Positions 11,531-55,536 of a DNA stretch of 64,000 nt are shown piece after piece. Below the pieces are notes generated by a model. It made no database searches and had not been told where the DNA came from. It saw only the letters and a list, made by a program, of their open reading frames with translations. Each line of letters begins with the position of its first letter. The first letter of the stretch is position 1. The DNA lies in the NCBI GenBank assembly GCA_046539305.1, contig JBKHHE010000003.1, forward strand, positions 1,369-65,368, read 5' to 3'. This stretch comes from Candidatus Aenigmatarchaeota archaeon. Its GTDB lineage: Archaea > Aenigmatarchaeota > Aenigmatarchaeia > PWEA01. A program made the translations under genes and the position numbers.

Positions 11531-11695
11531 GGGGCCATAGTGTAGCCAGGCCTAGCACAGCGGACTCCAGATTTTTGGAGTTTTGACCAGGAGTACATGC
11601 TTTTCCGCGGATCTTCTGGGATGATAGAAAGTTGGATGTATGGCTATATGCCAAGGTGACATCCGCAGCCCCCGGTTCAAATCCGGGTGGCCCCA
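11531..11695 (+). tRNA. tRNA-Trp (anticodon CCA) with a 90-nt intron at the canonical 37/38 position (intron 11571-11660)
   Basis: Acceptor GGGGCCA/TGGCCCC, anticodon stem GCGGA/TCCGC, loop CTCCAG|A, T arm CCCGG-TTCAAAT-CCGGG, discriminator A. The splice sites sit in 3-nt bulges (AG|A and AC|A) around a 4-bp helix with one U.U. Confidence 0.9.
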
Positions 11696-15727: not shown

Positions 15728-15844
15728 GCGGCCGTGGTCTAGTGGCTAGGACTCGAGCCTTCCATGGGCACGCCCGGTAAATCTTTGGTCGGGCGCGCAG
15801 TCCGGAGCCAGCTCGCAACCCGGGTTCAAATCCCGGCGGCCGCA
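15728..15844 (+). tRNA. tRNA-Gly (anticodon UCC) with a 45-nt intron at 37/38 (intron 15765-15809)
   Basis: Acceptor GCGGCCG/CGGCCGC, D arm GTCT-AGTGGCTA-GGAC, anticodon stem CGAGC/GCTCG, loop CTTCCA|A, T arm CCGGG-TTCAAAT-CCCGG. A canonical hBHBh' motif is present, with central helix CUUC/GGAG and bulges CA|U and CC|A. Confidence 0.85.
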
Positions 15845-55161: not shown

Positions 55162-55536
55162 TCATTTGCTTCCTGTTTTTAAAGTTTTTATCTCGTCCAC
55201 GACCTCGTCCACGAGGTCCTCTGCATCACCAAGCTCGGTTATCGCCGTTGAAGCCGCTTGAACTGTTATGCCGCAGGCCCTTCCGAGCTCTTCTTTCTTC
55301 CCTACGTATGTGTAGGGGACTGATTTCTCCTCACAGATTGCGGGAAGGTGCATCACGACTTCGGGTGGTTCCACGTCTTCCGCTATTACCACAAGTTCTG
55401 CGTTACCTCTTTCCACAGCCTTTGTAACTTCGTTTGTACCAATGTTCAGCTTACCGGTGGCTCTGGCCGTTTCTACGGCTTCGAGCGTGGTGTCTTCAAG
55501 CTCTTCCGAAACGTCAAACTTCACGTAATCGGTCAT
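55162..55536 (-). CDS. rpl7ae: 50S ribosomal protein L7Ae (K-turn binding; also a C/D, H/ACA and RNase P component)
   Basis: 'GKLNIGTNEVTKAVERGNAELVVIAEDVEPPEVVMHLPAICEEKSVPYTYV'. A strong GAGGTGAT SD lies upstream. Confidence 0.9.
   Translation of the reverse strand: MTDYVKFDVSEELEDTTLEAVETARATGKLNIGTNEVTKAVERGNAELVVIAEDVEPPEVVMHLPAICEEKSVPYTYVGKKEELGRACGITVQAASTAITELGDAEDLVDEVVDEIKTLKTGSK

Follow-up and report, generated by a model that had tools for sequence, protein, structure and literature searches.

The window analysed here is a 64,000-nt stretch of contig JBKHHE010000003.1 from Candidatus Aenigmatarchaeota archaeon (assembly GCA_046539305.1), and all bare coordinates below are positions within it. 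The organism is known solely as a metagenome-assembled genome; the source assembly (G000) comprises 0.70 Mb and is ~90% complete. On the forward strand the window carries a tRNA-Trp(CCA) gene interrupted by a 90-nt intron, which is the subject of this report. The Rfam tRNA model spans 11531-11695 from end to end with a score of 43.4 bits and a 94-nt insertion in the anticodon loop, and ARAGORN, when introns are allowed, reports tRNA-Trp(cca) with a 90-nt intron. This option is required, as ARAGORN with default settings detected no tRNA in the window. Both programs bear out the 90-nt intron at position 37/38 of tRNA-Trp that had been given in a preliminary description made from the letters alone. 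The cloverleaf was also read by hand, with acceptor stem GGGGCCA/UGGCCCC, D stem GUGU/GCAC, anticodon stem GCGGA (11560-64)/UCCGC (11662-66) and an anticodon loop of CUCCAG, the intron and A. Since 11571 and 11661 are both A, a shift of the intron boundary by one base leaves the mature tRNA unchanged. At the intron 3′ end the sequence GG(U/A)GA(N) is conserved among homologues. Four congeners (G003, G006, G001 and G005; loci L015, L016, L007 and L008) carry a second tRNA-Trp intron of ~21-22 nt between A26 and nucleotide 27, for example GCAUCUGUUGGUGCGCUGAAG; the window gene is without it. The gene and the elements that we recognize in its intron are the following.

11531-11695, forward strand: tRNA-Trp(CCA) gene, exons 11531-11570 and 11661-11695 (Rfam, ARAGORN, cloverleaf by hand).
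11571-11660, forward strand: 90-nt intron at the canonical 37/38 position (Rfam, ARAGORN; homologous introns in eight relatives).
11574-11582, forward strand: putative guide arm 1, UUUGGAGUU, pairing with tRNA nucleotides 31-37; G11578 faces C34, five bases upstream of box D′.
11583-11586, forward strand: box D′, UUGA (UUGA in 17, CUGA in eight and AUGA in one of 26 homologues).
11587-11619, forward strand: canonical stem and variable apical loop of a predicted kink-turn (K-turn); 11587-93 pairs with 11613-19 over 7 bp, loop 11594-11612.
11620-11627, forward strand: 3-nt bulge GAU (11620-22) and box C′ AUGAUAG (11621-27); (G/A)AUGAUA(G/A/U) is conserved class-wide.
11628-11639, forward strand: 12-nt spacer after box C′, its last 7 nt being putative guide arm 2.
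11633-11639, forward strand: putative guide arm 2, UGGAUGU, pairing with ACAUCCG at 11659-65, i.e. the last two intron bases and tRNA nucleotides 38-42 (A38-G42).
11640-11654, forward strand: unpaired A11640, hairpin UGGC/GCCA (11641-44 with 11650-53) and A11654, occupying the expected box D site.
11655-11658, forward strand: GGUG, which in the bulge-helix-bulge splicing motif supplies the 3′ side of the central helix; its partner is C32-C35, and U33.U is mismatched.
11659-11660, forward strand: AC, 3′ bulge of the splicing motif as read from the letters, which also pairs with guide arm 2.

Arm 1 begins 3 nt past the 5′ splice site. Its segment UUUGGAGU (11574-81) is complementary to ACUCCAGA, with G11578 opposite C34. 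Two bases separate the tetranucleotide GGAG (11577-80) from UUGA downstream, and C34 thereby comes to N+5. The antisense element thus adjoins box D′ and has its target nucleotide at the fifth pair, in a short duplex of 6-9 bp. This register had been proposed before, and it is kept in the relatives. Guide positions 7 and 8, which were left free in our search pattern, pair with A36 (24/26 homologues) and G37 (23/26), respectively, and guide position 2 covaries with nucleotide 31 (U:A in six, C:G in nine). The predicted fold of the cis hairpin has an energy of -9.5 kcal/mol and a z-score of -3.4. The distance from the 5′ splice site to box D′ is 12 nt in most of the genus and 13-36 nt elsewhere; a 12-nt ruler between the two was rejected as it holds in this genus only.

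The two boxes next to arm 1 can form a K-turn. By sequence the element has the canonical stem, the 3-nt bulge, the tandem sheared G.A/A.G pairs (G11623.A11586 and A11624.G11585, with GAUAGA at 11623-28) and the non-canonical stem of this RNA motif. Beyond the sheared pairs follow U25.U84, A26-U83, G27.U82 and A28-U81 (given as the last two digits of each position), and an A-U pair stands where canonical boxes carry G-C. In the terms of a canonical archaeal box C/D small RNA (sRNA), UUGA and AUGAUAG with their stem make up the internal C′/D′ K-turn. The preliminary description had named a C′/D′-type K-turn with this compensating A-U pair, and every base that it named is in place. Its canonical stem was seen as the 4 bp of CUGG/CCAG; this pairing is present within a stem that in fact extends over 7 bp, one of them G.U, and that recurs in the predicted fold. 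As a bare motif in the window alone the K-turn is not significant (two matches against 0.41 expected; 6 of 100 shuffles reach two).

The comparison of homologues adds what the single sequence lacks. Over 26 distinct sequences the stem abutting the boxes has a mean length of 3.5 bp, compared with 0.7 bp for shuffled loops and a maximum of 1.31 bp in 1000 shuffles. At least eight different stem sequences occur among the homologues, and the stem of related tRNA-Trp introns is thus kept while its sequence differs, which is the covariation that had been suggested as a check on the K-turn. Neither the length nor the sequence of the apical loop is conserved. In this genome the loop holds an 8-nt palindrome, UCCGCGGA, at 11604-11611, which is unique to the genome, repeats both strands of the anticodon stem and contains GCGGAU; it may be a chance occurrence or a dimerisation site.

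A BLAST search with the whole gene, which makes no use of the motif, found a homologous gene in seven genomes of the same genus and in one sister genus. All of these keep GGAG-NN-UUGA, the stem and (G/A)AUGA(U/C)A(G/U/A). The 2-nt linker (UU, UA, AA or CG) and both the sequence and the length of the stem vary among them, and the N+5 register is constant. A pattern anchored on the Trp anticodon loop matched 36 of the 371 genomes of the class, belonging to 21 of 170 genera of Aenigmatarchaeota. The reversed pattern gave four matches, as did the same pattern in the N+4 register, where none of the four was tRNA-like. We regard this comparison as decisive evidence, at the level of sequence, that the arrangement exceeds chance.

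We then asked what the intron has in place of the second half of a box C/D sRNA. A terminal K-turn of box C and box D with a terminal stem (RUGAUGA and CUGA in the canonical form) is absent: neither the sequence upstream of arm 1 nor that downstream of arm 2 contains a box with GA. The preliminary description had not settled on a terminal C/D pair, and none exists in this genome or its genus. Three substitutes were considered and rejected. A second K-turn made of the hairpin 11641-53 with G11658/A11659 needs A.U in place of A.G, and its key adenine A11640 is G in four of 11 homologues. GUGA (11656-59) as box D finds no box C partner, and N+5 would then face the last intron base instead of U39. 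Finally, the anticodon stem cannot serve as the terminal stem of a C/D K-turn, as the GA dinucleotides are not adjacent. A search of the region against Rfam gave no match to a C/D family even at E-values up to 10, and Rfam has no family for the tRNA-Trp intron guide. Lacking boxes C and D as well as a second K-turn, the intron would therefore be a natural "half-mer" C/D guide.

Downstream of box C′ the introns fall into two forms. In most families of the class they are short, and box C′ is followed directly by the final 5-9 intron nucleotides with no second arm. Long-form introns, to which the window intron belongs, number 11 and come from two families, this one and another, with two genera each. 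In all 11 the spacer after C′ is exactly 12 nt long, in line with the ~12 nt of a canonical sRNA, and arm 2 stands at a constant offset; it forms 7/7 pairs in nine of them and 6/7 in two, with six different targets. Compensatory changes affect five of the seven pairs of arm 2, and seven of 11 pairs when the hairpin is included. For arm 2 and hairpin together, 96.7% of alignment cells are paired, compared with 79.8% after shuffling (a value of 96.7% was reached in none of 500 shuffles) and 28-55% when the partners were slid. The hairpin itself covaries, with U-A in five and C-G in six of the 11 sequences. The pair between arm 2 and the last intron base covaries as well (G-C in six, U-A in three, A-U in two), and the partner of arm 2 is therefore the unspliced RNA. 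In the window A11636 of arm 2 faces U39. The preliminary description had placed a second guide at GCGGAU (11607-12). The sequence is indeed at that position; its role as a guide we reject, because it lies in the hypervariable apical loop, where the closest relatives (82-84% identical) carry unrelated sequence, and the covarying arm is the one at 11633-39.

The genome encodes all three core proteins of box C/D particles, i.e. L7Ae, Nop5 and fibrillarin. Fibrillarin (288.5 bits) and Nop5 (204.4 bits) adjoin on contig 9, and L7Ae lies in the window itself.

55162-55536, reverse strand: L7Ae gene (NCBIfam TIGR03677, 170.7 bits with a cut-off of 134.6; Pfam PF01248, 103.5 bits).

Strict and relaxed regular expressions for canonical C/D sRNAs (RUGAUGA ... 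CUGA) returned no excess over a shuffled genome. Judging by their sequences, the C/D boxes of this lineage are degenerate. A scan with the K-turn unit found a dual-guide C/D sRNA outside the window, in the 16S-23S spacer (G000:C2:31044-31131; L061:2545-2632). It reads, in order, stem GGGGAAC/GUUCCCU, box C AUGAAGA, 12 nt, D′ UUGA, internal stem UCCC-GAGA-GGGA, C′ AUGAUAG, 12 nt and D AGGA. Each of its two guides has a match in the 23S rRNA that lies downstream, and one sets the U of a GGGU-GUUC-ACCC hairpin at N+5; we take this hairpin to be the A-loop, its U probably corresponding to E. coli U2552. The sRNA is conserved in three relatives (G005, G010 and G011), where the stems covary and the guides are unchanged. 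It shares with the tRNA-Trp intron the D′ box UUGA, the C′ box AUGAUAG, the stem-closed internal K-turn and the 12-nt spacer after C′, and differs in having box C AUGAAGA, box D AGGA and a 7-bp terminal stem, none of which the intron has. Since the same UUGA/AUGAUAG with its stem occurs in this sRNA, it is the normal internal K-turn of the lineage. The 23S rRNA is in turn followed, after some 150 nt on the same strand, by an archaeal RNase P RNA (92 bits; L061:5858-6288, G000:C2 ~34357-34787).

A second tRNA of the genome has a similar arrangement. The tRNA-Met(CAU) gene on the complement of G000:C13 8503-8667 (L062) has a 92-nt intron with UAUGAGCU-UUGA-UCCGC...GCGGA-GAU-GAAAA, and its guide pairs 7/7 with nucleotides 31-37 of its own tRNA with C34 in the N+5 register. 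None of the other intron-containing tRNAs of the genome passed a test for a self-targeting N+5 guide with a K-turn. The tRNA-Gly(UCC) at 15728-15844 has a GC-rich intron of 45-47 nt at the canonical position that contains neither a K-turn nor a self-targeting guide. Introns are otherwise frequent: more than half of the tRNA genes predicted by ARAGORN contain one, e.g. Ser-CGA (135 nt), Met (92), Trp (90), Ala (87) and Glu (81), and some of these calls look spurious, such as two extra 'tRNA-Trp' on C2. A hairpin of the form (A)GAAACUUUU-loop-AAAAGUUUC, followed by AUCAAAA, recurs at the 5′ end of many unrelated tRNA introns, in this genome in Cys (C7:7643-7765), Thr (C9:4205-4316), Ala (C13:9981-10141), Ser-CGA (C2:97256-97473) and Glu (C12:2-125), and also in L009/L036 (the tRNA-Trp intron of G008). 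The hairpin may represent an intron module that is shared or mobile, or else a site for protein binding.

Based on these features we interpret the tRNA-Trp intron as a box C/D-type guide with a single K-turn that is built into its own target, with a probability of roughly 0.72, and the guidance of 2′-O-methylation of C34 (Cm34) on the unspliced pre-tRNA is its likely function. Constrained folding of the 165-nt precursor gave -63.4 kcal/mol at 37°C and -22.6 kcal/mol at 70°C for the guide fold, in which both arms are paired in cis, compared with -55.1 and -16.3 kcal/mol for the cloverleaf with the splicing motif. The guide fold is thus predicted to be more stable by 8 kcal/mol at 37°C and by 6 kcal/mol at 70°C, and the transcript is therefore expected to adopt the guide form first. 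In this form arm 2, by pairing with the last two intron bases and nucleotides 38-42, would unzip the anticodon stem, make the anticodon loop available to arm 1 and bury the 3′ splice site. UUGA and AUGAUAG, closed by the 7-bp stem, would form the K-turn on the unspliced pre-tRNA-Trp; L7Ae would bind it, followed by Nop5-fibrillarin. Arm 1, over 7-8 nt, would pair with nucleotides 31-37 of the anticodon loop, and C34 at the fifth pair from D′ would become Cm34. The guide may act in cis or between two pre-tRNAs, and two precursors may perhaps share one Nop5 dimer. Refolding to the cloverleaf and the bulge-helix-bulge would then allow the endonuclease to cut. Since arm 2 would bury the 3′ splice site, we propose that methylation precedes splicing.

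This proposal has precedents. The intron of euryarchaeal pre-tRNA-Trp guides Cm34 and the 2′-O-methylation of U39 (Um39) (PMC4090602, PMC11408192, PMC7994747). Measurements on Haloferax, Thermococcus and Sulfolobus have shown Cm34 in their tRNA-Trp (PMC7668247); the authors suggest that the modification guards against the reading of UGA as Trp by preventing a mispair of C34 with A in the third position of the codon. The Haloferax volcanii intron and the sR50 intron of Pyrococcus lie, like the present one, at 37/38 of tRNA-Trp, address C34 at N+5 upstream of D′, have a second antisense over nucleotide 39, and have their targets within the splicing motif. Bortolin and co-workers are said to have found in 2003 that the guide and splicing folds of the euryarchaeal pre-tRNA-Trp exclude each other, and the order that we propose, guide fold and then splicing, matches the logic reported there. 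The introns differ in layout. As described, those of Haloferax and Pyrococcus are complete C/D RNAs with K-turns at both C/D and C′/D′, whereas here C′/D′ stands alone. There is no box C before arm 1, which starts 3 nt from the 5′ splice site, a plain hairpin takes the place of box D after arm 2, the boxes are the variants UUGA and AUGAUAG, and the internal element is a stem-closed K-turn rather than a K-loop. The match to the Haloferax paradigm claimed in the preliminary description accordingly holds as a general kinship and not in full, as the paradigm has two K-turns.

Three further systems are close in one respect or another. The intron RNA of the elongator tRNA-Met of Nanoarchaeum equitans (PMC3491384), likewise from a DPANN archaeon, is stable, has C/D-like boxes and comes from a tRNA in which C34 is a known methylation site. 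It belongs to another tRNA, and the tRNA-Met intron of the present genome has the same single-K-turn device as the tRNA-Trp intron; the remaining three introns of N. equitans are considerably shorter, and no C/D RNA is reported in them (PMC3491384). The circular tRNA-Trp intron of Sulfolobus solfataricus (PMC3326292) shares two 7-bp complementarities near nucleotides 34 and 39 and lacks consensus C/D boxes. It has no recognisable boxes at all, whereas the present intron has one clear K-turn that is conserved class-wide. The likeness points to one function that may survive in degenerate forms across phyla. Finally, half-mer C/D ribonucleoproteins (RNPs) from Pyrococcus/Sulfolobus have been assembled and crystallised with target RNA (PMC6239191). 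They have one K-turn and one guide, with two RNAs per Nop5 dimer and the target bound. These are laboratory constructs, whereas the intron is natural, covalently joined to its substrate and provided with an extra 3′ arm. A natural half-mer is plausible because such RNAs assemble with the core proteins and bind target RNA.

Several points weigh against the intron being a guide of this kind. With neither box C nor box D, the symmetric sRNP with two K-turns cannot form on one RNA. The guide duplex is short, with always 6 Watson-Crick or G.U pairs and 7-9 at most, compared with ~10 in canonical guides. The scan of the class fixed GGAG and its spacing, so that the register was tested independently only by the BLAST set and by the N+4 control, and just 36 of the 371 genomes match. 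In addition, Tran and co-workers reportedly found in 2003 that half-mers of one Methanocaldococcus sRNA were poorly active in vitro.

Of the other explanations, the one that fares best adds to the Cm34 guide rather than replacing it. The intron may be a full dual guide in which arm 2 also methylates nucleotide 39 (U39 here, C39 in some relatives), as in Haloferax, where Um39 is guided by the intron (PMC4090602). In that case the box D K-turn that was lost would be replaced by the hairpin or contributed by a second RNA on a Nop5 dimer. The constant 12-nt spacer after C′ is that of the spacer sRNA. The antisense arm covers nucleotides 38-42, and nucleotide 39 comes to N+5 only when the hairpin is taken as the box; if the purine after the arm is included in the count, this nucleotide faces the fifth base before the hairpin. 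In one long-form intron (L024, G050:C37) the hairpin position is occupied by G-UUGA-UUAGU-GAAAU, a possible second K-loop with a D box and nucleotide 39 at N+5; it is therefore possible that in the present family an ancestral second motif has decayed to the hairpin. Against this, the hairpin is not a K-turn, as the site has no GA.AG pairs in this genome and genus and the flanking purine that would be the key adenine is G in four of 11 homologues, and arm 2 is absent altogether from most families of the class. We also know of no mechanism that positions fibrillarin without a D-box K-turn. On balance we consider a methylating role of arm 2 possible, although less likely than not.

A less probable alternative is that the active form is the excised and circularised intron, a circularly permuted C/D RNA acting in trans on other tRNA-Trp molecules. 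Joining the 3′ GUGAC to the 5′ AU creates a box C-like GUGACAU 10 nt upstream of arm 1. GUGA(U/C/A) followed by A is widely conserved at the intron 3′ end, with U33 still facing a U instead of the A that would pair with it. Moreover, tRNA-Trp introns form stable circles in Haloferax and Sulfolobus (PMC3326292), and a permuted circular C/D sRNA occurs in Nanoarchaeum (PMC3491384). The GUGACAU box C, however, has no partner D box, and GGUG is already accounted for as a strand of the splicing helix. Arm 2, moreover, pairs and covaries with the last two intron bases, which makes its target the unspliced RNA and not the mature tRNA. We therefore regard a circular guide as unlikely.

That the K-turn and both arms are only a folding or splicing-control device, in which L7Ae times or licenses splicing without any methylation, is very improbable: the 3′ splice site does lie hidden in the guide fold, whose predicted stability exceeds that of the splicing fold, and many L7Ae-bound K-turns are unrelated to methylation (PMC5539422), but the strict N+5 register on C34 (36 genomes compared with four for N+4) would be left unexplained, the same register recurs on C34 of tRNA-Met, and a genuine rRNA guide uses the identical pair of boxes.

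The intron is thus a known device in a new layout and not a new kind of system. In the literature that we searched, a layout with one K-turn and a second arm that covaries but has no box is not described for Aenigmatarchaeota. More tentatively, half-mer RNPs could be the normal route to Cm34 in these reduced archaea, with arm 2 serving as a strand-displacement clamp that opens the anticodon stem and is a checkpoint for methylation before splicing, or alternatively in a methylation of nucleotide 39 that is independent of box D; we hold this extension to be possible rather than probable.

If true in either version, the symmetry of two K-turns, which is thought to be needed for efficient activity of archaeal C/D RNPs, would be dispensable in vivo. 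The lineage has the full protein machinery and rRNA guides with two K-turns, yet would use embedded guides with one K-turn for tRNA-Trp and tRNA-Met. It would thus allow one to test, on a natural system, if juxtaposed C/D and C′/D′ motifs are a requirement of C/D RNPs. The second arm covaries across the 3′ splice junction, and this is evidence taken directly from sequence for a guide that acts on the unspliced RNA and for a coupling of modification and splicing by way of the alternative folds of the same transcript.

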